Below, piece by piece: positions 17,338-31,754 of a stretch of 52,119 bases of DNA. The stretch covers positions 1 through 52,119 of the forward strand of contig JAZRXT010000103.1 of the NCBI GenBank assembly GCA_045600365.1, in the 5' to 3' direction. Under the pieces are notes generated by a model that was given only the letters and a program-made list of their open reading frames with translations, had not been told where the DNA came from and made no database searches. Every line of letters begins with the position of its first letter. Positions within the stretch are counted from its first letter, which is position 1. The DNA comes from Kiritimatiellia bacterium. GTDB lineage: Bacteria; Verrucomicrobiota; Kiritimatiellia; RFP12; UBA1067. Made by a program: the position numbers and the translations under genes.

Positions 17338-19137
17338 ATGTCAGACAACAATACAAAGACCCACTGTGTGGTGGAGAAGAAGATCTGTCGGCTTCAGCTG
17401 GATGAAGGTGGCTTCAGGCTCGAAGAGGGCGGGTCATTGCCGGAAGTCGAGGTTGCCTGGGAATCGATTGGCCTCGAGAGACCGGAAAACGACAACGTGG
17501 TCTTCATCTGCCATGCACTCACCGGCGACGCCCACGTGGCTGGCCGCTACGCCGGCGAAAGCGAGAATTCCGGGTGGTGGGAGTCGATCGTGGGCCCCGG
17601 GCGGGCCATCGACACCAACCGGTACCGCGTGATCTGCGCCAACGTGCTGGGTGGCTGCAAGGGAACGACCGGGCCGTCCAGCGTCAATCCCGCCACGGGC
17701 AGACCCTGGGGCGGCGATTTTCCCCGCTTCACCATGGGCGACACGGTGGAGGTCTACCGCGCCCTTCTCCATCAGCTCGGCATCACCCATCTGGCCGGTC
17801 TCGTCGGCGGGAGCTTCGGCGGCATCCAGGTGATTGAATGGATCGCCGCCCATCCGGGCGAAGTCGACCGCGCGGTGATGATCGCGTCCGGCGCGGCGCT
17901 CAATGCGCAGGCGCTCGCGTTCGACATCGTCGGCCGCTACGCGATCACCCTCGACCCCCATTGGCACAACGGCGACTACTACGACAAGCCGCAGGAGGAC
18001 CGCCCCAACATAGGCCTCGCCCAGGCCCGCCAGGTTGCGCATATAACCTACCTTTCGCTGGACCTGCTGAACCGCCGCTTCGGGCGGCGGCTGCAGGAGG
18101 ACTGGCTGGAGCGCGACGAGGACTGGAAGCGGCGGCATGCCGATAGATTCGGCACGATGTTCGCGATCGAGAGCTATCTTGGCTACCAGGCGAAGAAGTT
18201 CCTCGCGAGATTCGACGCCAACAGCTATCTCCAGATCACGCACGCGATGGACCGCTATGACGCCGCGGTGAAGTATGGTTCGATCGACGAGGTGTGCCGC
18301 CGCATAACCTCGAAGCTGCTGCTGATCTCCATATCGGGCGACTGGCTCTTCAGCGAAGAGCAGAGCCGCACCATCGCCGCCGCCATGCTTCGGCAGAACA
18401 AGCACGTTTCATACGCCCATCTCGACATAAAGGTGGGCCATGACGGCTTTCTAACCCACACCCGCGAACTCGGGCGCGTTATGGGAAGCTTCTTCGCCCC
18501 CGCCACGCGCGAGGTCGCGGACGAAAAGCGCCGTAAGCTCGCGCCTCTCGTGGCAATGGTGCCCCAGGGCGCGCGCGTGCTGGACATCGGCTGCGGCAGT
18601 GGTTCGCTGCTCACGCTGCTCCGCGCCAAGGGAATCGAGGGCACCGGCGTGGAAATCGATCCGGAGAAGATCGTCAATGGCGTCAAGGGCGATCTGAGCA
18701 TACTCCACGACGACGCCGACGAGGGCCTGGAAATACTTCCGGACGGCGCATACGACCTCGCCGTGCTGTCGGAGACGCTGCAGACGGTCCGCAAGCCAAG
18801 GGAGATTCTGGTGCGGATTCTGGACAAGGCCAGAGAGGCCGTGGTCACAATCCCCAACTTCGCATCTCTGCCGATCCGCCTCCACCTTGCATTCACCGGC
18901 AGAATGCCCGTGGGCAGCGAACTTCCCTTTGAATGGTACGACACGCCGAACACGCACTTCTTCACCTACCGCGACTTCCGTGCACTCTGCAAAAAGGAGA
19001 ATATCGAGATCAAGAGCGTGCGTGCTGAGTCGTCCAACCTCCTTGGACGCCTACTGGTGCGGCTCGGCCTGGTAAACCTGGGCGCCGACCGCGTCATCTG
19101 CCGCCTTGCCAGAAACGAGCGGAAAACCGCCGAGTAA
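17338..19137 (+). CDS. metX: homoserine O-acyltransferase MetX fused to C-terminal MetW (SAM-binding) domain
   Basis: HALTG, NVLGGCKGTTGP, GGSFGG, RFDANSY, GHDGFL; then VLDIGCGSG, VTIPNF, GRMPVGSELPFEWYDTPNTH. Confidence 0.9.
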   Translation: MSDNNTKTHCVVEKKICRLQLDEGGFRLEEGGSLPEVEVAWESIGLERPENDNVVFICHALTGDAHVAGRYAGESENSGWWESIVGPGRAIDTNRYRVICANVLGGCKGTTGPSSVNPATGRPWGGDFPRFTMGDTVEVYRALLHQLGITHLAGLVGGSFGGIQVIEWIAAHPGEVDRAVMIASGAALNAQALAFDIVGRYAITLDPHWHNGDYYDKPQEDRPNIGLAQARQVAHITYLSLDLLNRRFGRRLQEDWLERDEDWKRRHADRFGTMFAIESYLGYQAKKFLARFDANSYLQITHAMDRYDAAVKYGSIDEVCRRITSKLLLISISGDWLFSEEQSRTIAAAMLRQNKHVSYAHLDIKVGHDGFLTHTRELGRVMGSFFAPATREVADEKRRKLAPLVAMVPQGARVLDIGCGSGSLLTLLRAKGIEGTGVEIDPEKIVNGVKGDLSILHDDADEGLEILPDGAYDLAVLSETLQTVRKPREILVRILDKAREAVVTIPNFASLPIRLHLAFTGRMPVGSELPFEWYDTPNTHFFTYRDFRALCKKENIEIKSVRAESSNLLGRLLVRLGLVNLGADRVICRLARNERKTAE

Positions 19138-21377: not shown

Positions 21378-21426
21378 CATTCCTCATTCCTAATTTCTAA
21401 TTCTCCATTCCTAATTCCTAATTCAT
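21378..21426. repeat. tandem 7 bp array (c/a)ATTCCT, about 7 units
   Basis: cattcct cattcct aatttct aattctc cattcct aattcct aattcat. Confidence 0.85.
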
Positions 21427-21442
21427 TTATAATTTACAAGGC

Positions 21443-21605
21443 TGTTGATAACTTTATCATAACTTCGGCATGATTTAATATATCTTTTGCTTGATTTTTA
21501 CGCTGACTTTACAAACCCCCTTATTTTATTGGACAAAATCAACATTGACCTTCGGATTTTGTCGCATAACGAAATCTTGCGAACACCATTCAAAACTGTT
21601 GATAA
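21443..21605. promoter_or_regulatory. DnaA-box cluster 1 (TTATCAACA type)
   Basis: tgttgataa 21443-21451, ttatcataa 21454-21462, tgttgataa 21597-21605, in AT-rich DNA. Confidence 0.6.
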
Positions 21606-21637
21606 TAGTAGACAGTAACGCCATAGGGCTGAAATCA

Positions 21638-21710
21638 CTCCACGAGGGAAAACGAAAACTCCACAAGGGGAGACGCGATTCTCCACAAGGGAAAACGAAA
21701 ACTCTACAAT
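21638..21710. repeat. 21-22 bp phased direct repeats (about 3.4 units)
   Basis: ctccacgagggaaaacgaaaa / ctccacaaggggagacgcgatt / ctccacaagggaaaacgaaaa / ctctacaat. Confidence 0.85.
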
Positions 21711-21734
21711 GGGGGGGAGGCAATGGGAGCCACA

Positions 21735-21855
21735 AGTTAAATTCGCTGCGCTCATAAATGCCCTTCGGGCTAAATTCACTTCGTTCATAAATGGTTCTTG
21801 TGGATGTGATGATTGGATTATTATCTGAAGTGCATTTATTCGTGAAGCGAATTTA
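21735..21855. repeat. dispersed REP-like element, copy 1
   Basis: 21735-21777 matches 50640-50682 at 42 of 43 bp; contains a GCCC-TTCG-GGC hairpin; further TAAATTCGCTTCGCTCATAAATG-like units at 21771-21793 and, inverted, at 21833-21855. Confidence 0.85.
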
Positions 21856-22094
21856 AACATTTATGAATATGTGGGTGTATGACGGTTGGATTGCCCGAAA
21901 GGACATTCTTTTCCCAACCTCTTTCCGTGCCGCGCGAAGCGTGATTCCGTGGTCAAAAAAACAAAGGGCGCATGGCGGCAGCACCCCCCGCAGCGGGAAC
22001 AGACACCATATTAGGATTAAATCGCAGTGCTCATAAATGGCTACACACTAGCAACTCCACACCTACGCAACTACGTCCACACCAGCACCAGCAA

Positions 22095-22142
22095 ATTTAA
22101 CCATTTAACCATTCAACTATTTAACCATTTAACTATTTAACT
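22095..22142. repeat. tandem 8 bp array ATTTAAC(C/T) x6 upstream of mnmG
   Basis: atttaacc atttaacc attcaact atttaacc atttaact atttaact. Confidence 0.92.
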
Positions 22143-22170
22143 CTCTCTGGTTTTATGCTATAATAAGTCT

Positions 22171-24045
22171 ATGGAAAACAAAAGATACGATGTGGTGGTT
22201 TGCGGTGGCGGACACGCTGGCGCCGAAGCTGCTTTGATATGCGCCAGGATGGGGGTGAGCACCCTGCTCATAACCAGTAGAACTGACGCCATTGCGCGTA
22301 TGCCATGTAATCCATCGATTGGCGGATTGGCCAAAAGCCACCTTGTATTCGAACTGGACGCCCTGGGCGGTGAAATGGGATTCAATGCCGACCTCACCTC
22401 GCTCCAGGAAAAGACCCTGAACACTAGCCGCGGGCCTGCGGTGCGAGCAACTCGGGCACAGTGTGACAAGTCAGAATACACCCAGAGGATGCAGCGGGTA
22501 ATTGCCCAGCAAGCCAACCTAACCGTGCTAGAAGACGCAGTAGTAGACATCCTGCTGGATGAATCCAATCAATGTGCCACGTGGCACATCGCGAACGACG
22601 GCCAAACAGGACAAAGCCATCTATACGGGGTTATAACTAAAAGTAGTGGTATAATACTCGCAAATAATGCAATTATAACCTCTGGGACCTCGCTGAGGGG
22701 ACGAATATGGATTGGTAAGGACGGTACACCGTCCGGCGGCGATGGCAGGCCTGCCGTGGACGAGCTTAGCAACTCGCTGAAGAGACTTGGATTCGAACTC
22801 ATACGACTGAAAACCGGAACTCCACCGCGCCTGAAGGCGTCAAGTATAGACTTTTCCAAGACCATCCAGCAACCCGGGGAAGACAATCCGCCGTTCTTTT
22901 CACTAATGACATACTCCGTTCTGAAGGAATGTGCCACGTGGCACATTGGCGATGAAGAACACTATCCCTACGCTCCTTGGGTGCCAAACTCGCCACAACT
23001 CAGTTGCTGGGCTACCCATACCACACCGGAATCCCATAGGATAATTAGAGACCATCTGGCGGACAGTTCTCTCTATGGCGGACCTATCACCGGTACTGGG
23101 GTGAGATATTGTCCTTCCATCGAGGACAAGATAGTCAGATTCAAGGATGCGCAAAGCCACCATGTAATACTCGAACCCGAAGACCGCGCTGGCACGATAA
23201 TCTATCCCAACGGGCTATCCAACAGTCTGCCCCGGAACGTGCAGGAGGAGCTGGTTCATTCGGTGCCTGGCCTTGAACACGCCGAATTTCTGGCCTATGC
23301 CTACGCCATAGAATACGATGGCATCGACCCTCGGGAACTGAAACACACCCTCGAATCAAAGCGAATCGGCGGCCTGTATTTTGCCGGCCAGATCAATGGC
23401 ACGACTGGCTATGAGGAAGCTGCAGCCCAGGGGATAATTGCCGGCATAAACGCTGCCTTTGCTGCCCAGGGCAAAGCACCATTGGTACTCAGCCGACAGG
23501 ATGCCTATATCGGAGTGATGATCGATGACCTGGTTACCAAAGGAACAGATGAACCGTACAGGATGTTCACCAGCAGGGCGGAGAGGCGTCTGATTCTACG
23601 CCAGGATAATGCCCGATACAGACTTGCCGATGCCGCTGACCGAGTGGGCGTGCTTCCTGAGGAAATAAGGAATGAAACCAGACGCTTTGCCACGCTCATA
23701 GAGGAAATCGAAAAGGACGAAAAGGTGCTTGCGCATGTCCTGGAGAATCCCCACGACGGAAATGGTTCCATACCGCCGGAGGTGGTGGAGCAGCTTAGAA
23801 TCAGAAAACTCTATGCCTGCTATATCAAGCAGGAGGAGATTGCCGCCGAGCGGGCAAAACAAGATGAGGCTATCGTAATACCCCAATGGCTGGATTATGA
23901 TAAATGCACATCGGTAAGATATGAGAGCCGGGAAAAGCTCAAGCGGTATCGGCCGGAAAATCTTGCCCAGGCATTACGCATTCCAGGTGTCAATCCGGCA
24001 GATGTTGCCATCCTGGCGATTATCATCAGACGTGGGCACGTATAG
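22171..24045 (+). CDS. mnmG: tRNA uridine-5-carboxymethylaminomethyl modification enzyme MnmG (GidA)
   Basis: [70 protein letters not shown]. TGcTATAAT lies 6 nt upstream of the ATG. Confidence 0.97.
22573..22588. promoter_or_regulatory. parS-like palindrome 1, TGTGCCACGTGGCACA (inside mnmG)
   Basis: Perfect 16 bp palindrome (18 bp with flanks); differs from the known parS TGTTCCACGTGGAACA only at symmetric positions 4 and 13; about 4 kb from dnaA. Confidence 0.7.
22930..22945. promoter_or_regulatory. parS-like palindrome 2, TGTGCCACGTGGCACA (inside mnmG)
   Basis: Identical core; the perfect palindrome extends to 20 bp (22928-22947). Confidence 0.7.
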
Positions 24046-24090
24046 TTGATGGTTAAACAGTTAAATGGTTAAATGCTTAAACTGGTTAGA
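24044..24090. repeat. 8 bp array (G/A)GTTAAA(T/C), reverse complement of the array upstream of mnmG
   Basis: agttgat ggttaaac agttaaat ggttaaat gcttaaac tggttaga. Confidence 0.8.
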
Positions 24091-24224
24091 GTGGGTGGTG
24101 GATGGAGTGATGGTGGATGGGTGGGTGTAAGGTCAGAGAGGTTTGCTGTAAATCTCTAATGCACAGATTATGCGACATATTTATTTCTTGTCATACCCAG
24201 GCATTTTTGCTATAATCTAAAACC

Positions 24225-26573
24225 ATGAAAAATAGAAAATTCTGGATTTGTGCGCTTTTAGCGGTGATCTCCTTTGGTTTGATGGCCGCAGGATCAACGG
24301 AGGCGACCGATGGGGCCACCAAGGCCCTGTTCCAGCCGGAGGAGCTTCCGCTCACGGAGAAGATGACGTTGCTGGCGCTGCAAATTGGTTTGATTCTATT
24401 TGCGGCTAAACTGGGCGGTATGCTCGCGTCGCTGTTCAAGCTACCGTCGGTGTTGGGCGAACTCGGGGCCGGCGTGGTCATCGGTCCCTGGGCGCTCGGT
24501 GGGATTGGCTTCGGTTCCGGATTGTTCAAATTCGGTCTTTTCCGTGGCGGCGAACTTGCCGCGCAGGCTGCGGCCACCGGCAACGTTCCCTTTGCCGTTA
24601 CTCCGGAACTGTACGGTATCTGCACCATCGCCAGCGTTATTCTGCTGTTCATGTCTGGCATTGAAACCGATCTCAAGATGTTTCTGCGGTTCGCCTTTGC
24701 CGGTTCGCTGGTGGGTATCGGCGGTGTGGTGTTTTCATTTCTATTCGGCGACTTCTGCGCCATCTATGCGGTGAAGGTGTTTCCCGATCTCCTTGGCAAC
24801 ATCGCCTGCCTGAAGGAGCTAGGGGACATGGTCAGTTCTGGCCAGATAATGAGAGCCATCCTCTCGCCGGCCGCAATGTTCATGGGCATCATGTCCACGG
24901 CTACCTCCGTGGGAATAACGGCGCGCATTCTCTCGGAGCGTCGGAAGATGGACTCCGAGGAGGGGGTGACCATCATGGCCGGGGCTGTGATCGACGACGT
25001 GCTGGGCATCATCGTGCTTGCCATCGGCATGGGCATTATCGGTTCGCAGCAAGCCAACGCGGCGGCACAGGAAACCGCCAAGGCGGGAATTCCCTGGGGC
25101 AATATCGGGATGACGGCGCTGAAGGCAATCGGCATCTGGCTTGGCGGCACCATGCTGGGGATAGTGTTCGCCCGCAAGATCTCGTTCCTGCTGAAGATGT
25201 TCCGCAGTCCGGTGGCGATCGGAACGCTGGCTTTCGGTCTCTCGCTGGTAATCGCCGGTCTGTTCGAAGCGCTGGGACTCACGCTGATCATCGGTGCCTA
25301 TGTCATTGGTCTTGCCCTCAGCAAGACCGACATCAAGCACATGATTCAGGAAAACCTTGAATCGGTCTACACCTTCCTGGTGCCGGTGTTCTTCTGCGTA
25401 ATGGGCATGATGGTCGATTGCAACGCCCTGTGTTCGAAGCCAGTCCTGATATTCGGCGGAATATACACCATCCTCGCCGTGTTCGCAAAAGTGCTTGGAT
25501 GCGCGATTCCATCGTACTTCTGCGGATTCAATATTCTGGGTTCGCTGCGGGTTGGATCGGGCATGATTCCGCGTGGCGAAGTTGCCCTTATCATCGCCGG
25601 CATCGGTCTTTCCAACGGGTTCTTGACTCAGGAGGTGTTTGGCATCGGCATCATGATGACGCTCATCACCACCATCATCGCCCCGCCCTGCCTGGTTGCA
25701 CTTTTCAATACCAGGAAATCTGGCGTGAGGGGCAGGCGCAAGGCGAACACCGAAGGTTCAAGTCCGTTCAGCTTCACGCTGCCCAACATCTGGACGGCGA
25801 AGCTGATGCTCGATCGCCTGATCAACACTTTCAGGCACGAGGGATTCTACACCTATTGTCTGAATGCGCGCGAGAACATCTGGGAAGTGGTGATGAACGA
25901 CATAGAGATTTCCATCAAACGCGAGGAAGACAAGATCTGCTTTGAGTCCACCCCCAACGAGGAGGCATTGATAACCAGTGCCTGGATGGAGGCTGCCGGG
26001 GAAATCAACGAATTGGCCAACGCGATTTCCAAGCCTATCCGCAATAAGGAGATTGGCGACATCCTCAAGAACGAGGCCAGCGAGATGATGCAGCAGAACA
26101 CCTCGGCCCGCCATATCCAGCAGTTCGTGATGATTCCGAATTTCACGGCTGCCAGCAAGGTTGACGCGATAAACAAGCTCATAGACAAAATCAACGAAAA
26201 TCGGCCTGGCATGATCTCCGATGTGGAAAAGGTTCGTAAGGCTGTATTTGCTAGAGAAGAATCAATGCCAACTGGGCTTAACAACGGAATTGCGGTTCCC
26301 CATGGCCGCACTGATGCCGTAAAGGAAATTATCGGAGCTGTTGCGATTGTGGATAATTCATCCAATGACAACGGCATCATTCCCGACTACGAAACCATCG
26401 ATCATTCGGCCATTCAGATAATAGTTCTTACGCTCGCGCCGACAAGCGGACAGGCGCCGTATCTCCAGCTGATGGCAAGCATTACGACGAAGCTCAAATG
26501 CAAAAACGGTCATGAACAGCTGCTTGAATGTAAAACTCCCGAGCAAATGAAGAATTTCTTCAAACAAAAGTAA
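24225..26573 (+). CDS. CPA2-family cation:proton antiporter with C-terminal PTS EIIA domain
   Basis: Many TM helices with LPSVLGEL, LFMSGIETD, ATSVGIT, AVIDDVLG, GMIPRGEV; C-terminal REESMPTGLNNGIAVPHGR. Confidence 0.88.
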   Translation: MKNRKFWICALLAVISFGLMAAGSTEATDGATKALFQPEELPLTEKMTLLALQIGLILFAAKLGGMLASLFKLPSVLGELGAGVVIGPWALGGIGFGSGLFKFGLFRGGELAAQAAATGNVPFAVTPELYGICTIASVILLFMSGIETDLKMFLRFAFAGSLVGIGGVVFSFLFGDFCAIYAVKVFPDLLGNIACLKELGDMVSSGQIMRAILSPAAMFMGIMSTATSVGITARILSERRKMDSEEGVTIMAGAVIDDVLGIIVLAIGMGIIGSQQANAAAQETAKAGIPWGNIGMTALKAIGIWLGGTMLGIVFARKISFLLKMFRSPVAIGTLAFGLSLVIAGLFEALGLTLIIGAYVIGLALSKTDIKHMIQENLESVYTFLVPVFFCVMGMMVDCNALCSKPVLIFGGIYTILAVFAKVLGCAIPSYFCGFNILGSLRVGSGMIPRGEVALIIAGIGLSNGFLTQEVFGIGIMMTLITTIIAPPCLVALFNTRKSGVRGRRKANTEGSSPFSFTLPNIWTAKLMLDRLINTFRHEGFYTYCLNARENIWEVVMNDIEISIKREEDKICFESTPNEEALITSAWMEAAGEINELANAISKPIRNKEIGDILKNEASEMMQQNTSARHIQQFVMIPNFTAASKVDAINKLIDKINENRPGMISDVEKVRKAVFAREESMPTGLNNGIAVPHGRTDAVKEIIGAVAIVDNSSNDNGIIPDYETIDHSAIQIIVLTLAPTSGQAPYLQLMASITTKLKCKNGHEQLLECKTPEQMKNFFKQK

Positions 26574-26592
26574 TTTTTGTTAATATATATTA

Positions 26593-26627
26593 TTATCCAC
26601 ACAGTTATCAACATAACCTGTTGATAA
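26593..26627. promoter_or_regulatory. DnaA-box cluster 2 upstream of dnaA
   Basis: TTATCCACA 26593-26601 (canonical), TTATCAACA 26605-26613, TGTTGATAA 26619-26627. Confidence 0.85.
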
Positions 26628-26727
26628 CATGTAGATATTGTATTACTTTTTTTTGATGATTTTTTAGATAAAATATGGTTGAATATTAGCGCTCTTGAAA
26701 AAAAGTTTTTTTAGAAGAAGGTTCAAA

Positions 26728-28194
26728 GTGGACAAAGAACTGTTTAACAGCGATATGTTCTGGCATTTACTGCTAGAAAAAGTTCGGTCGTATCTCGGCA
26801 GCGAACAAGAGAAAAGCCGCATTGACCGATACCTTCACGGCGTTACCTCGCACATGCTGGAGGATGGAAGGTATGTCATCGGGGTTCCAGAACAGATTCA
26901 GGCGGAACTATTTGCTCCACTGTACACGAAGCCGCTTGAAAAGGCGCTTATGGAACTCGGGGCTGGCGATGGAATCGAGGTCAAGTTCATAGTCAGGGAT
27001 GAAAATTCCGGGCATGTCGAGCTTTCTCCAAACATCCTGTATGGCGATCGAGGTGATAAAAAAGAAGAGAAGGCGAATGCAGCGCCGGCAGATGTTGACC
27101 CGCACCCGCACGCAAAACCTCCGATGGTGCGCGGAATACCGTCCACAATGCCCTTGCATGAGAACTACACCTTTGATAACTTCGTTCGCGGTCCGTCCAA
27201 TTCATTTGCCCACGCGGCGGCGAAGGCTGTGGCGAAAGGTCCGGGTAGAACATCCTACAATCCCCTGTTCATCTATGGCGGCACCGGTCTGGGAAAGACC
27301 CATCTCATGGAGGCGATTGGTCACCAGGTACTGAAGGAGAATCCGTCCGCATCGGTCTGCTACATAACCTCGGAAACATTTCTCAACGAATACGTGAACG
27401 CCATCGCCAACGATTCGATGCCAGCCTTTCGCGAAAGATACAGAAACGTCGACGTGTTCCTTCTGGACGATGTGCAGTTCATTGCGGGCAAGAAGCAGTT
27501 CCAGGAGGAGTTCTTCAACACCTTCAGTTCCCTAATGCTCTACCACAAGCAGATTGTAATGACGAGCGACGTGGCGCCAAAGGACATCAAGGACTGTGAA
27601 GAAAGACTGATCGGTCGCTTTCAGCAGGGAATGGCGGTAGAAATCGAAACGCCAACCTACGAAACACGTCTGGCCATTCTAAAGTTCAAGGCGCATGGCA
27701 CCCAGCACGTCATACCAGACGAGATTCTCAACTACATTGCGGAGCACATCAGGTCGCACGTGCGAGCCATCGAAGGCGCCTTGCTGCGGGTGGTTACCTA
27801 CATGGATATCAATCCCGGCCTTCCATTGACCGTGGAAATTCTTTCGCACCTGCTGAAGGACTCCATCGAGGAAGAGGAAACCATCAAGGATCTAACGGTC
27901 AACCAGATCATCAAGACCGTGGCAGAATTCTACAACGTTACAGTGGACGAGATTTCGTCAGATCGTAGAACCCAGACGCTGGTCACTCCCCGCCAGGTGG
28001 CCATGTTCCTTTCGCGCAAGCTTACATCGCTTTCATTTCCAGAAATCGCCAAGGTGTTCGACAAGACGCATGCGACGGTACACCACGGTATGCAGGCCAT
28101 CCAGAAGCGAATGGATGTTGAGTCAGAACTGAGAAGGGCGCTCGAGCAGATAACCGTGAAGCTGGGAAGAAAATACACGGATATCACCGAGTGA
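26728..28194 (+). CDS. dnaA: chromosomal replication initiator DnaA
   Basis: YTFDNFVRGPSN, YNPLFIYGGTGLGKTHL, LLDDVQF, QEEFF, RAIEGAL, PRQVAMFL. Start is GTG 26728 or TTG 26695. Confidence 0.97.
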   Translation: MDKELFNSDMFWHLLLEKVRSYLGSEQEKSRIDRYLHGVTSHMLEDGRYVIGVPEQIQAELFAPLYTKPLEKALMELGAGDGIEVKFIVRDENSGHVELSPNILYGDRGDKKEEKANAAPADVDPHPHAKPPMVRGIPSTMPLHENYTFDNFVRGPSNSFAHAAAKAVAKGPGRTSYNPLFIYGGTGLGKTHLMEAIGHQVLKENPSASVCYITSETFLNEYVNAIANDSMPAFRERYRNVDVFLLDDVQFIAGKKQFQEEFFNTFSSLMLYHKQIVMTSDVAPKDIKDCEERLIGRFQQGMAVEIETPTYETRLAILKFKAHGTQHVIPDEILNYIAEHIRSHVRAIEGALLRVVTYMDINPGLPLTVEILSHLLKDSIEEEETIKDLTVNQIIKTVAEFYNVTVDEISSDRRTQTLVTPRQVAMFLSRKLTSLSFPEIAKVFDKTHATVHHGMQAIQKRMDVESELRRALEQITVKLGRKYTDITE

Positions 28195-28440
28195 CAAGCT
28201 GTGAAGATTCTTTCGGCAAGCTGTTCACATCTGGCGCAGTTATCGAAAGATTTCGTGACGCGATGAAAATATCTTATTTTATTGAAAGCCGATCAACACG
28301 GATATCTACAGCCGCAAAGTCATTCATCCCTTTTAAAATAAGGGCCAACTGGAGTTATCAACATATCTAACACTTCTAATATTACTATATTTTATTCTTT
28401 ACTTTGATTAATATATTAGGTAAAATATTAGCCAAGCAAA
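28195..28440. other. probable oriC unwinding region (dnaA-dnaN intergenic)
   Basis: Degenerate boxes, then TTATCAACA 28355-28363 followed by a trio-like run TAA CAC TTC TAA TAT TAC TAT (28368-28388) and an AT-rich tract. Confidence 0.7.
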
Positions 28441-28475
28441 AAATCTCATCCGGCATAGCCAAAAGGAGTTAGTCA

Positions 28476-29567
28476 ATGAAGATCAAGATCACGAGGTCGA
28501 ATTTTCTCGATGGCCTCAAGAAGGTTCAGAATGTAATTGGTGCCAAGGGTTCGCTCCAGATTATTCAGAATGTTCTGATGGAGGCTAGTGACAACAAGCT
28601 TCAGCTGACTACGACGGATCTCGATATTTCGATTCGCTCCACTGTTCCATGCGAGGTCGAGAAGGAGGGCGCGACTACTCTTCCGGTGAAGCTCCTTGTC
28701 GGAATGATTTCCAGGGCTGCCGAGGGTGTAATCGAGATTGACGTCGATGAAGCCGATCGTGCTTCGATTTCCGCCGCCTCGGCTACTTTCAACATCACTG
28801 GCATGAATGTCATCGACTATCCTCGCCTACCTGAGGATAGTAACTCATTCGAATACGTGATCGACCAGGAAAACCTCCGCGACATGTTCAGGAAGACGGC
28901 CTATGCCGCTAGCCAGGATGAGACCCGCAAGACGCTCAAGGGCGTGCTGATGAGTTTCCGCGACGGCAAGCTCACCATGGTGGCCACCGATGGTCGTCGT
29001 CTTGCCATGATCGAGAACGAAGTTGAGTTCCCTGAAAACGCCTCAAAGGACATTGTGCTTCCGGTAAAGGTCGTGGCCGAACTTCAGCGTGCGCTTGGAA
29101 CCAATGGCAGCGTGCGGATATCGGTGGAGAATTCCCAGATATCCTTCAACCTTGGCGACACCAGAATCTATTCTAAGGTGCTTGATGATGTCTATCCCAA
29201 CTATCGCCAGGTGATACCGGCTGAATGCGCCGAGAGCGTGAAGGTCGACCGTCAGCTTCTGCTTTCGGCCATTGACCGCGTGAGCGTGATGTCGTTTGGC
29301 GAATCCAATTCCATCACCCTTTCTTTCTTGTCGAACGAGCTCATTGTCAAATCTTCGCCCGACTCCGGCAACAAGGGACGCGATTCGGTTCCGATCAAGT
29401 ATGAAGGCCCATCGATCGACATCGCGTTCAACCCCGACTTCCTGATGGATCCGCTCAAGGCGATCGACGATGACGAGGTGTCCATTAATTTCAACAATAA
29501 TGGATCACCCGCCATGATGAAGTGTTCCAAGCCCTTCCTGTATGTGATGATGCCGCTTCGCACCTAG
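28476..29567 (+). CDS. dnaN: DNA polymerase III beta clamp
   Basis: TTDLDISI, VATDGRRLA, YPNYRQVIP, IAFNPDFL, YVMMPLR; SD aaggag. Confidence 0.97.
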   Translation: MKIKITRSNFLDGLKKVQNVIGAKGSLQIIQNVLMEASDNKLQLTTTDLDISIRSTVPCEVEKEGATTLPVKLLVGMISRAAEGVIEIDVDEADRASISAASATFNITGMNVIDYPRLPEDSNSFEYVIDQENLRDMFRKTAYAASQDETRKTLKGVLMSFRDGKLTMVATDGRRLAMIENEVEFPENASKDIVLPVKVVAELQRALGTNGSVRISVENSQISFNLGDTRIYSKVLDDVYPNYRQVIPAECAESVKVDRQLLLSAIDRVSVMSFGESNSITLSFLSNELIVKSSPDSGNKGRDSVPIKYEGPSIDIAFNPDFLMDPLKAIDDDEVSINFNNNGSPAMMKCSKPFLYVMMPLRT

Positions 29568-29606
29568 GCATAGTAGTCTTTCTTCCTCTACATAGACGGT
29601 GGTGTC

Positions 29607-30884
29607 ATGAACATCTGGACGGATAGAAAATATCCGATAATACTTTCTTGCGCAAAATGCCTTTCTCCGTGGGTTGAGGGCGAAGTGGAGGAACTTGGTT
29701 ACAGGCCACTCGAGGTCACTGAAAACGTGGTGGTGGTGGAGGGTTCATTACGCGACGTCTTCAAGCTCAATCTTCGTCTGCGTTGCGCCCACCGCGTGCT
29801 GGTTCCGCTGCTAAGGGCTACCTGTCGCCATGTTAGGGAACTTTACCAGCATGTCTGGTCCATCGACTGGGAAAACATACTCGAACCGGATGGCTATTTC
29901 AGCATCTCGTCGATTGTCCATAATGACACCGTCCGCGACACTCGTCTGCCCTCGCTGGTGGCGAAGGACGCGATAGCCGACAGGATGCGCTCCAAGTGCG
30001 GAAGACGCCCGGATTCTGGCCCGGACTATGATCGTGGCGCGGCGATTTTCATTCATTGGGACAAGGACTGCGTCATCATCTACATCGACACCAGCGGCTC
30101 GCCCCTCTCCAAACGCGGTTACCGAATGATACCAGGATCCGCTCCTATGCAGGAAACCCTGGCCGCAGCCTGCATCGACGCCATGGGATGGAATCGCTGC
30201 ACGCCGTTCATCTCCCCAATGTGTGGAAGCGGAACGCCGGCCATTGAAGCCGCCCTGGCGGCAATTGGCAGGGCTCCTGGGTCACTGCGCTCGCATTTCG
30301 CATTCATGTCGCTCAAGGGCTATCATCTTATCATCGATGGCGAGAAGGCACCGAGATCGGCGCCTCGCCAGCGCTTCGGCGCCTCGCCCGAGCAGATATG
30401 GAAGGATATGGTGCTGGAGGCCGCCGAAGGCGAAAGAACCGATTCGGTGCCGCCGATTGTGGCTACCGACATCTCGCCCGAAGCCATTGAAAATGCCAGA
30501 ATAAACGCCCATGGTGCAGGAGTGAGCGAATACATAACCTTTCAGGCGTGCGACTTCGGCGATACGCCGATTCCACGGCTGGAGGGAAACAAGGCAAAGT
30601 ACGAGGGATGCGTATTTTTCAATCCAGAATACGGTATCCGATTGGGAGATCCTGTCGAGCTGGTTCCAATCTACGAACGCATCGGCACTTTTATGAATGA
30701 AAAGTGCCGCGGCTTCATGGGTGGCCTCATTACCGGTAATCCTGAACTTTCCAAAATGGTCAATCTTTTCTACCAGACGAGGATTCCATTCTATAACGGT
30801 CCTATCGACTGTAGATTGTTCATTTATCCTGGTTGCGAGCTCAAGGGTGCACATGCTCCAGCACAGGAAATGCCGCCGCGCTAA
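29607..30884 (+). CDS. THUMP-domain RNA methyltransferase (RlmL/YpsC-like)
   Basis: NLRLRCAHRVL, DTSGSPLSKRGYR, APMQETLAAA, PMCGSGT, NPEYGIRL. Confidence 0.87.
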   Translation: MNIWTDRKYPIILSCAKCLSPWVEGEVEELGYRPLEVTENVVVVEGSLRDVFKLNLRLRCAHRVLVPLLRATCRHVRELYQHVWSIDWENILEPDGYFSISSIVHNDTVRDTRLPSLVAKDAIADRMRSKCGRRPDSGPDYDRGAAIFIHWDKDCVIIYIDTSGSPLSKRGYRMIPGSAPMQETLAAACIDAMGWNRCTPFISPMCGSGTPAIEAALAAIGRAPGSLRSHFAFMSLKGYHLIIDGEKAPRSAPRQRFGASPEQIWKDMVLEAAEGERTDSVPPIVATDISPEAIENARINAHGAGVSEYITFQACDFGDTPIPRLEGNKAKYEGCVFFNPEYGIRLGDPVELVPIYERIGTFMNEKCRGFMGGLITGNPELSKMVNLFYQTRIPFYNGPIDCRLFIYPGCELKGAHAPAQEMPPR

Positions 30885-30903
30885 GATTGTTTCTACGTTG
30901 ATA

Positions 30904-31008
30904 TTATCAACAGCTTATCATAACATTGTTTATAAAATACTTATCTACAACCTTATTATCAACTGTTTATAACTGACTGTTGATAAACCTGTTGATAACT
31001 GTTGATAA
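30904..31008. promoter_or_regulatory. dense DnaA-box cluster 4 (about 9 boxes or near-boxes)
   Basis: ttatcaaca 30904, ttatcataa 30915, tgtttataa 30927, ttatctaca 30941, ttatcaact 30956, tgtttataa 30964, tgttgataa 30978, 30990 and 31000. Confidence 0.8.
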
Positions 31009-31072
31009 CTTAGTCTTGAAGAGTGGCTTGAAATATGGGATAATATGTGCCGCCAACACGGCAGAAACATAA

Positions 31073-31624
31073 ATGCTTAATCTACCTCAGGAAATCTGTG
31101 CCAAATTCAAAGCGGCACGTCAGGCGAAAGGACTGAATCAATCGGCCCTTGCGCAGATTGTTGGTTGTAGGCAAAGCGCCATATCGATGTTTGAGGGAGG
31201 TTTGACCACCAAGATTTCGGAAGATACCGTAAAAAAACTTTCCGAGTTTCTCGAGGTGCCTCTAGAGGTGGAGAAAAAAGGGCTGAGTTCCGTAGATGTT
31301 TCTTCCCCCATGGTCATTAACCTGGCGGTTCGTGGTTTCTGTCCTGACTGCAATTGTCTTTCCAATGTTCCTTACATAATAGGCAGTCGTGTGTTTTTCC
31401 GTCCGGCGCGACATGTGTCATCGCCAAATTGTGGCAAATATTGCACAGTATGTGGCGAATTATTGGAATTAAGGTGCCCAACCTGCGGTGCTCCGCTGAA
31501 CGATGGTGCTTGCTGCGCCGCATGTGGATCGTCCTATGTTACCCCGGTTCTTCCCAGTGGAATCAATCTAGAAGAGTATGTACTGAATCGTCGCCGTGAC
31601 ATTGAGGCGATGAGAATATTGTAG
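31073..31624 (+). CDS. XRE-family helix-turn-helix protein with C-terminal zinc-ribbon (double zinc ribbon-like) domain
   Basis: ARQAKGLNQSALAQIVGCRQSAISMFEGG; CPDC, CTVC, CPTC, CAAC. Promoter TTGAAG (31016)-17 bp-GATAAT (31039). Confidence 0.82.
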   Translation: MLNLPQEICAKFKAARQAKGLNQSALAQIVGCRQSAISMFEGGLTTKISEDTVKKLSEFLEVPLEVEKKGLSSVDVSSPMVINLAVRGFCPDCNCLSNVPYIIGSRVFFRPARHVSSPNCGKYCTVCGELLELRCPTCGAPLNDGACCAACGSSYVTPVLPSGINLEEYVLNRRRDIEAMRIL

Positions 31625-31754
31625 AATCTTAAAAAATATTTAGAAAAAGTTGTCAGCGAGGATAGAAGGCGCATATCATATGGTGGATGCGGAAATGAAA
31701 GCCCGCTCCGGAAGCTTCTTCTTCCTTAACCTTGCGCGAAAGCCGAACCGATTC

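Follow-up and report, generated by a model that had tools for sequence, protein, structure and literature searches.

Chromosomal parS centromeres and the residues with which ParB proteins read them are regarded as nearly frozen across bacteria, and most work to date on how ParB specificity changes has used the ParB/Noc pair and engineered libraries. It is also known that parS can lie inside genes, as in Bacillus subtilis, where one is found within spo0J. Here we analysed a stretch of 52,119 nucleotides from a Kiritimatiellia bacterium of the phylum Verrucomicrobiota (GenBank: GCA_045600365.1; contig: JAZRXT010000103.1; hereafter the window), in which the gene mnmG (gidA) carries two in-frame copies of a parS-like palindrome, TGTGCCACGTGGCACA. 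Among the rows listed in Table 1 of PMC7022226 (12 of 19 places), nearly all primary-chromosome parS sites have T at position 4 and A at position 13; the exception among these rows is Burkholderia cenocepacia chromosome II. The two window sites agree with the parS consensus tGTT(T/C)CACGTG(A/G)AACa at 14 of 16 positions, positions 4 and 13 being G and C, and the site is thus a variant of the parS consensus and not a member by sequence alone. The draft genome to which the window belongs (G000; the window is its contig C103) consists of 195 contigs with 2,788,981 bp and 62% GC at an estimated completeness of 69%. The closest named contigs are Kiritimatiellia metagenome-assembled genomes.

The initial annotation of the window, made from the letters alone, had described a perfect 16-bp palindrome at 22573 and again at 22930, 357 bp apart and both in the same frame of mnmG, so that MnmG reads CATWHI twice. 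The sequence and a pattern search confirmed this, with both copies in frame 1 of the open reading frame, and site 2 extends further to a 20-bp palindrome (AATG...CATT, 22928-22947). A search of the window allowing up to 3 mismatches to TGTGCCACGTGGCACA revealed no match beyond these two (0.19 expected; two matches were reached in 1 of 100 shuffles). Across the whole G000 draft the exact 16-mer occurs twice, with 0 copies at 1-2 mismatches and 7 at 3 mismatches, and the canonical pattern TGTTNCACGTGNAACA has 0 matches. Instead of being scattered round the genome, which the annotation had named as an argument against its own reading, the 16-mer is confined to mnmG, and with two copies and none within 2 mismatches elsewhere it is as rare as a parS site should be. 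The annotation had further placed both copies in loop insertions and had noted that neither parA nor parB is in the window. Both statements hold: the sites lie within stretches of about 16 residues that are absent from the solved Aquifex MnmG (2zxh), and Pfam scans of the 39 window open reading frames gave no ParA or ParB domain. In an AlphaFold2 model of MnmG, built from 28 aligned sequences (mean predicted local distance difference test score (pLDDT) 86.2, predicted template modelling score 0.90), the long segments with pLDDT below 50 are solely residues 133-145 and 254-265, which contain the two sites, together with 466-470.

We compared mnmG across an order-level set of 61 genomes (G000 and 60 relatives; congeners, n = 32). 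MnmG was recovered in 48 of them, and every perfect 16-bp palindrome was listed within 47 mnmG genes, namely those of 46 relatives and the window's own. Such palindromes are present in 45 of the 47 genes, with 1-6 copies per gene, and are of three types: the canonical site TGTTCCACGTGGAACA (23 genomes, 46 sites), the window's type a (TGTGCC...GGCACA, 7 genomes, 16 sites) and a type b, GTTTCCACGTGGAAAC (15 genomes, 43 sites). Two genomes (G025 and G036) have no perfect site. The types are never mixed within one mnmG gene. Type a was found in six genomes of the window's genus (G000, G005, G010, G013, G016 and G022) and in one of another family (G044), and the 15 type-b genomes are all congeners of G000 (G001, G003, G006, G011, G012, G014, G015, G017, G019, G020, G021, G023, G024, G026 and G028; loci L052-L067). 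Type-b sites prefer a flanking T (33 of 43) and A (36 of 43) and are effectively an 18-mer palindrome, TGTTTCCACGTGGAAACA, which corresponds to the canonical arms shifted outward by one base per side. Nearly all sites lie in a single MnmG loop between the conserved stretches '...FFSL' and 'APW...'; this loop is hypervariable in sequence and length (open reading frames of 624-950 amino acids (aa)), and site 2 of the window occupies it as well, in the place where 23 genomes of the order carry an accepted parS.

The exact type-a 16-mer occurs in 7 of the 61 genomes, always as clusters of 1-3, and TGTNNCACGTGNNACA in 35 of the 61, mostly as close pairs or triplets of the canonical TGTTCCACGTGGAACA. 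Five type-a relatives (G022, G010, G013, G016 and G044) together have 11 exact and 2 one-mismatch sites, every one of them in mnmG; outside mnmG these genomes hold three two-mismatch sites, and a reversed-pattern control gave 0-2 per genome. No copy of canonical parS was detected anywhere in type-a genomes, so that the canonical sites near oriC which the annotation had named as speaking against it are missing both from G000 and from the five relatives.

In the mnmG genes of G025 (L065) and G036 (L071), both sites have the central CACGTG changed to CACATG; the G025 gene carries TGTGCCACATGGCACA twice, in a genome with a His-bearing ParB as described below, and the G036 gene carries TGTTCCACATGGAACA twice. 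Lone CACATG copies were also seen beside perfect sites in G010, G006, G011 and G014. This variant could be CpG decay or a tolerated variant. On a different contig, G036, which has three parB genes, carries two perfect TGTTTCACGTGAAACA sites directly upstream of one of them (G036:C173:6287-7811).

ParB proteins scoring above the TIGR00180 cut-off (58.45 bits) were found in 55 of the 61 genomes, including 30 of 32 congeners and all six type-a genomes other than G000. An alignment of 51 of these proteins over 936 columns revealed one sole column that separates the type-a ParBs from the rest. All 9 type-a rows have His there (the type-a site is known for six; the other three, with mnmG not assembled, were classed by ParB alone), whereas the 24 canonical and the 18 type-b rows all have Asn. 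Counted by genomes with a known site, His is present in 6/6 type-a and Asn in 22/22 canonical genomes; Asn is also found in G036 and G049. The helix-turn-helix region as a whole groups the proteins by site type without exception. The column belongs to the 'V-A/T-N' of the recognition helix and aligns with the Asn of 'SHVANT' / 'GKSRSHVANTMRLL' in Caulobacter ParB 6t1f; its distance from Q162, G170-K171-S172-R173, G201 and R204 shows it to be N178. According to section 10 of PMC7383237, N178 is one of the parS-contacting residues conserved in ParB and Noc alike, the sequences compared numbering about 1,800 for ParB and about 400 for Noc. The discussion of PMC11229316 counts Arg159 and Asn164 among those residues of Helicobacter pylori ParB that confer specific parS binding, and the spacing of these two equals that of R173 and N178 (five residues).

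The type-a proteins score 157-172 bits against TIGR00180 and retain GERRLRA as well as the conserved Q, GKS/N, R, G and K, with His in place of N178. Measured against a canonical ParB, which combines the profile match with GERRxRA and the conserved parS-contact residues including N178 and R/K204, they are therefore members of the ParB family in which one defining contact residue is replaced. The His codons are CAC (4) and CAT (2), each one transversion away from the Asn codons AAC and AAT, and the use of both argues that His is maintained by selection. Type-b ParBs differ at ten diagnostic columns, with changes that include the following: Q162 is Tyr, an extra Lys is present in the turn (GKK), R181 is Gly, the Leu after GHAKVL is Gln and is followed by a four-residue insertion, and GERRL is GERRQ (GERRQRA). 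A change in the ParB helix-turn-helix had been predicted by the initial annotation, and it was found as Asn to His at the position of Caulobacter N178. The annotation's wider idea is borne out in part: comparison with congeners supports a ParB of shifted specificity, but what has changed is the chromosomal ParB itself, and that slightly; it is not a new paralogue of the ParB/Noc family. In G022 the gene upstream of parB resembles, by sequence as read, ArgC and not ParA.

In this phylum the sites form part of the mnmG reading frame, beside dnaA, where the gene encodes a disordered surface loop of variable length. Taking the site and protein comparisons together, we consider it likely that the window palindromes are the parS centromeres of the chromosome and that site and ParB have moved together to a new specificity. 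In such a scheme, a chromosomal ParB dimer would read each half-site through its helix-turn-helix, close as a CTP-dependent clamp and spread or slide from the site, and would thereby mark the origin region for segregation and for loading of structural maintenance of chromosomes (SMC) complexes, recruiting SMC and ParA. In the window's lineage the site has shifted symmetrically from TGTTCCACGTGGAACA to TGTGCCACGTGGCACA, with T replaced by G at position 4 of the 16-mer (position 3 as numbered by Jalal et al. 2020, PMC7383237), and the cognate ParB has exchanged the parS-contacting Asn (N178 in Caulobacter, N164 in H. pylori) for His. ParB with His178 should then use TGTGCCACGTGGCACA for nucleation in the way that canonical ParB uses parS, and bind the G-containing site better than the canonical one; its His would recognise the new G:C pair in place of the T:A pair recognised by Asn. 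At protein-DNA interfaces Asn tends to pair with adenine and His with guanine, which fits such a reading of G:C by His. The ParB of G000, which is not in the assembly, would also carry His.

Phylogenetic analysis bears on how often this change occurred. The ParB tree, built after removal of the helix-turn-helix columns, groups the window's genus as a clade (support 100) that is sister to the canonical G034; within the genus two type-a clades and one type-b clade form a trichotomy. The seventh type-a genome, G044, which has both the type-a site and a His ParB (L003, L022, L132), is distant and basal in this tree and is classed in another GTDB family, whose members G051 and G056 are canonical with Asn. 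In the MnmG tree G000 is sister to the type-b clade (support 89). All trees separate G044 from the genus by the canonical, Asn-bearing G034, which requires at least two joint changes of site and residue; by the tree topologies these would be either two gains or a gain and a reversion. Apart from residue 178, the helix-turn-helix of G044 is like that of the canonical proteins of the order and unlike that of the window's genus, which argues against a transfer of the protein.

The explanation that competes best with a joint shift accepts the sites as real parS and regards T to G as a tolerated drift variant, with Asn to His as a neutral or permissive change whose ancestry coincides with that of the site variant. 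According to the parts of PMC7022226 on Pseudomonas aeruginosa, ParB is reported there on many imperfect and half sites, which makes tolerance of a variant conceivable; the trichotomy of the type-a clades with type b means that the association within the genus could reflect one or two events, and in G025 a His ParB stands beside imperfect central bases in both sites. Drift would, however, yield mixtures of canonical and variant sites, whereas each genome has one type, 16 of 16 type-a sites are exact and the type-a genomes are without a single canonical site. Furthermore, the residue concerned is the parS-contacting Asn of the ParB and Noc survey cited above (PMC7383237), it is the sole diagnostic column in the alignment, and the same residue has changed in G044 on a different ParB background. 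We therefore regard drift without a switch in specificity as unlikely.

Several observations weigh against a joint shift of site and protein, or against its repetition. The approximately unbiased (AU) test on the ParB tree rejected a single origin of all His ParBs (64 log-likelihood units lost under a forced single clade, AU p = 0.0003), but its His group was chosen with the tree already known. In the MnmG tree G044 is the sister of a clade formed by G034 and the window's genus (support 97), in conflict with both the GTDB family and the ParB tree, and G044 has a long branch in both trees (0.81 and 0.84); its mnmG position is possibly due to horizontal transfer or long-branch attraction. This one gene tree makes the independence of the second type-a lineage less certain. 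No parB of G000 was found, neither by ParB_N and TIGR00180 profile searches nor by tblastn with two type-a ParBs, so that the link between site and ParB rests on the congeners; given an assembly that is 69% complete, the missing gene is weak counter-evidence. Finally, the His ParB of G025 with its two imperfect TGTGCCACATGGCACA sites as the only ones fits none of the explanations offered here.

The sole ParB_N match in G000 (C195:12995-13993; L001 1456-2454) was rejected as a partner of the sites. It is a fusion of an N-terminal ParB-like domain with an apparent DNA methyltransferase (DPPY motif) that reaches the contig end, and its likely source is a phage or other mobile element; it does not represent the chromosomal ParB.

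A more far-reaching version of the joint shift, towards which we lean only slightly, would hold that Asn178 to His alone, at a residue so far regarded as invariant in ParB and Noc, re-targets a primary chromosomal ParB from TGTT... to TGTG..., on at least two branches, and that a second jump within the same genus produced an expanded 18-bp parS together with a one-residue insertion in the turn of the helix-turn-helix, Q162Y and R181G. The result would be three mutually orthogonal centromere 'dialects' in closely related genomes, all in frame in a gene of an essential pathway that would serve as a fixed centromere address across Verrucomicrobiota.

Far less of the evidence is compatible with a role of the motif unrelated to ParB, be it as a Cys/His peptide (CATWH) for MnmG, as an mRNA hairpin or as the operator of another protein. 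The 16-mer does fold as an RNA hairpin of 7-8 bp (-10.3 and -11.7 kcal/mol), and 14 of the 16 type-a sites are in the CATWH frame (frames 0/1/2: 14/0/2). These hairpins are ordinary (z = -1.5 and -1.9), as 17 and 13 of 200 shuffles fold equally well, and the other two type-a sites read VPRG (VPRGT). In the relatives, textbook parS at the same place is read in three frames and as three unrelated peptides (frames 0/1/2: 21/19/6 of 46 canonical sites; CSTWN, FHVE or VPRG); type-b sites are all in one frame (VSTWK, 1-6 copies per mnmG). The palindrome is thus kept across frames while the peptide varies, which identifies the DNA as the conserved unit and the peptide as a by-product. CSTWN inserts in relatives had been anticipated by the initial annotation, and a conserved peptide with a palindrome broken by its codons had been its argument to the contrary; what we see is the opposite, a palindrome that is kept while frame and peptide change. 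The sites moreover lie in loops that are unordered in the model and absent from the solved MnmG, and the site variant tracks the recognition helix of ParB. The peptide-motif and RNA-hairpin readings were rejected on the frame data and the unremarkable hairpin energies, and a role without ParB is very improbable as a whole.

The features of the window around the sites are listed in the table below. The gene order is mnmG, a Na/H exchanger gene, dnaA and dnaN, followed by a gene for an RlmL-like methyltransferase and a gene for a helix-turn-helix protein. DnaA-box-like 9-mers are clearly enriched in the window (17 versus 4.51 expected; 0 of 100 shuffles reached 17), and their clusters, which precede mnmG and dnaA and follow rlmL, place the sites close to the origin, as is typical of parS: they lie upstream of dnaA and between DnaA-box clusters. 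The same mnmG-dnaA arrangement was found in G022, G013, G016 and G044.

Table. Coordinates of the parS-like sites, their host gene and origin-associated features in the window.
Feature	Coordinates	Strand	Description
Type-a parS-like site 1, TGTGCCACGTGGCACA	22573..22588	no strand	18-bp palindrome counting the flanking A and T; encodes C135-ATWH-I140
Type-a parS-like site 2, TGTGCCACGTGGCACA	22930..22945	no strand	encodes C254-ATWH-I259
mnmG (gidA)	22171..24045	+	624 aa, intact, host gene of both sites; Pfam GIDA (E = 3.6e-143), SAM_GIDA_C (5.7e-20); solved Aquifex MnmG 2zxh (E = 2.2e-150)
dnaA	26695..28194	+	Pfam Bac_DnaA (8.8e-63) and Bac_DnaA_C; start 3.75 kb downstream of site 2
dnaN (DNA polymerase III beta clamp)	28476..29567	+	Pfam DNA_pol3_beta, three domains
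Cluster of 3 DnaA-box-like 9-mers	21443..21687	no strand	1 mismatch each; within the 815-bp AT-rich spacer preceding mnmG
Cluster of 5 DnaA boxes	26222..26627	no strand	2 perfect TTATCCACA; directly ahead of dnaA; probably oriC or the dnaA promoter
Cluster of 5 DnaA-box-like 9-mers	30904..31008	no strand	downstream of rlmL; distal margin of the lower-GC origin island

The block from mnmG to the helix-turn-helix gene (mnmG, Na/H exchanger-EIIA gene, dnaA, dnaN, rlmL and the helix-turn-helix gene, with DnaA-box clusters at its bounds) forms an origin island at 21400-31700, with a GC content of about 49-57% versus 62% in the genome and a GC content at third codon positions of 0.56-0.70 versus about 0.8. 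This dip (21.4-31.7 kb) might suggest a chimeric insert from another organism of the metagenome, a scarcely credible explanation which we rejected, since the window returns to 62% GC on both flanks and the independent assemblies G022, G013 and G016 keep the gene order and show the same dip (0.48-0.54 versus 0.60-0.63 in their flanks), which makes the low-GC block a feature of the lineage.

Two fused genes were observed in the window: at 24225-26573 a Na+/H+ exchanger is joined to a C-terminal phosphotransferase system EIIA-2 domain, and at 17338-19137 an alpha/beta-hydrolase (MetX-like) domain is joined to MetW. The origin region of G044 is very AT-rich (35-47% GC). In the type-b genome G028 (G028:C178; L133), unlike in type-a genomes, no dnaA, dnaN or rlmL was found in the 20 kb around mnmG, and the centromere-bearing mnmG may here be away from dnaA.

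To see how far the arrangement extends, wider samples were searched (12 genomes from seven other Kiritimatiellia families, 10 from other classes, and a phylum sample of 401 genomes). In the seven other families, 12 of 12 genomes carry one or more canonical sites inside mnmG (L116-L127). Canonical sites were found in 7 of the 10 genomes from other classes (G442, G444, G445, G448, G450, G452 and G464), with all 8 sites in the mnmG frame, and canonical parS had no match in the remaining three. The phylum sample contains the type-a 16-mer in six genomes, in mnmG in five of them (G000, G010, G013, G022 and G044); the sixth, G666 from another class, has a single copy outside mnmG, which we took for a chance match. 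By its distribution in these samples, the mnmG-embedded centromere is old and widespread and appears phylum-wide, with the type-a sequence as a local novelty. A literature search at the level of titles and abstracts revealed no published description of a centromere inside mnmG and no published account of a non-canonical parS/ParB change like that of type a.

The lineage offers natural, recent and minimal switches, with one base per half-site and one residue in type a and a one-base expansion of the half-site with a helix-turn-helix insertion in type b, and close canonical forms as controls. It opens the questions of how a centromere and its reader change without loss of the chromosome, of promiscuous intermediates on the way and of barriers that such changes may set up between lineages. 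Pairs of ParB and parS that are orthogonal can also serve as tools for DNA labelling. Moreover, all sampled Verrucomicrobiota genomes that have a site carry the centromere in frame in a single MnmG loop, an unusual case of dual coding.

Among the known systems, the chromosomal parS of Bacillus, Caulobacter, Pseudomonas and Myxococcus, TGTT(T/C)CACGTG(A/G)AACA, is closest. Like it, the window site is a perfect 16-bp palindrome with a CACGTG centre, present in one to few copies beside oriC and dnaA, in a lineage with a ParB of the TIGR00180 type; the Pseudomonas putida form given in Table 1 of PMC7022226, TGTTCCACGTGGAACA, is the very site that relatives carry at the same place. It differs in the G and C at positions 4 and 13, in the exchange of the parS-contacting Asn for His in the relatives' ParB, and in having all sites in frame in one gene. 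Secondary-chromosome and plasmid pairs, such as gTTTATGCGCATAAAc of B. cenocepacia chromosome II, are similar in being distinct and, as far as the entries in PMC7022226 go, presumably orthogonal pairs of ParB and site. These are additional systems with very different sites, whereas here the only system of the primary chromosome lies one base per half-site from the canonical form.

The Noc protein with its Noc-binding site (NBS), as described in PMC7383237, also resembles our case: a ParB-family helix-turn-helix protein recognises a palindrome that differs from parS by a symmetric base change, through few recognition residues. In the sections of PMC7383237 on this switch, Noc differs at site positions 1 and 6 via residues 173, 179, 184 and 201, whereas here position 3 and residue 178 are concerned; with another site position and another residue, the route of switching is a different one. 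In agreement with this, the type-a ParBs keep R173 and G201 and do not have the Noc set (Q173, K179, K184, R201; site TATTTCCCGGGAAATA), and the window site keeps G at position 2 and the CACGTG centre, unlike NBS. Noc is furthermore a paralogue with a different role, whereas here the single chromosomal ParB itself would have shifted. Finally, the parS within spo0J of B. subtilis is a comparable case of a centromere tolerated in coding sequence near the origin; unlike there, the sites described here occupy one loop of one enzyme across the phylum sample, in any frame, within a hypervariable insert that holds up to 6 copies.

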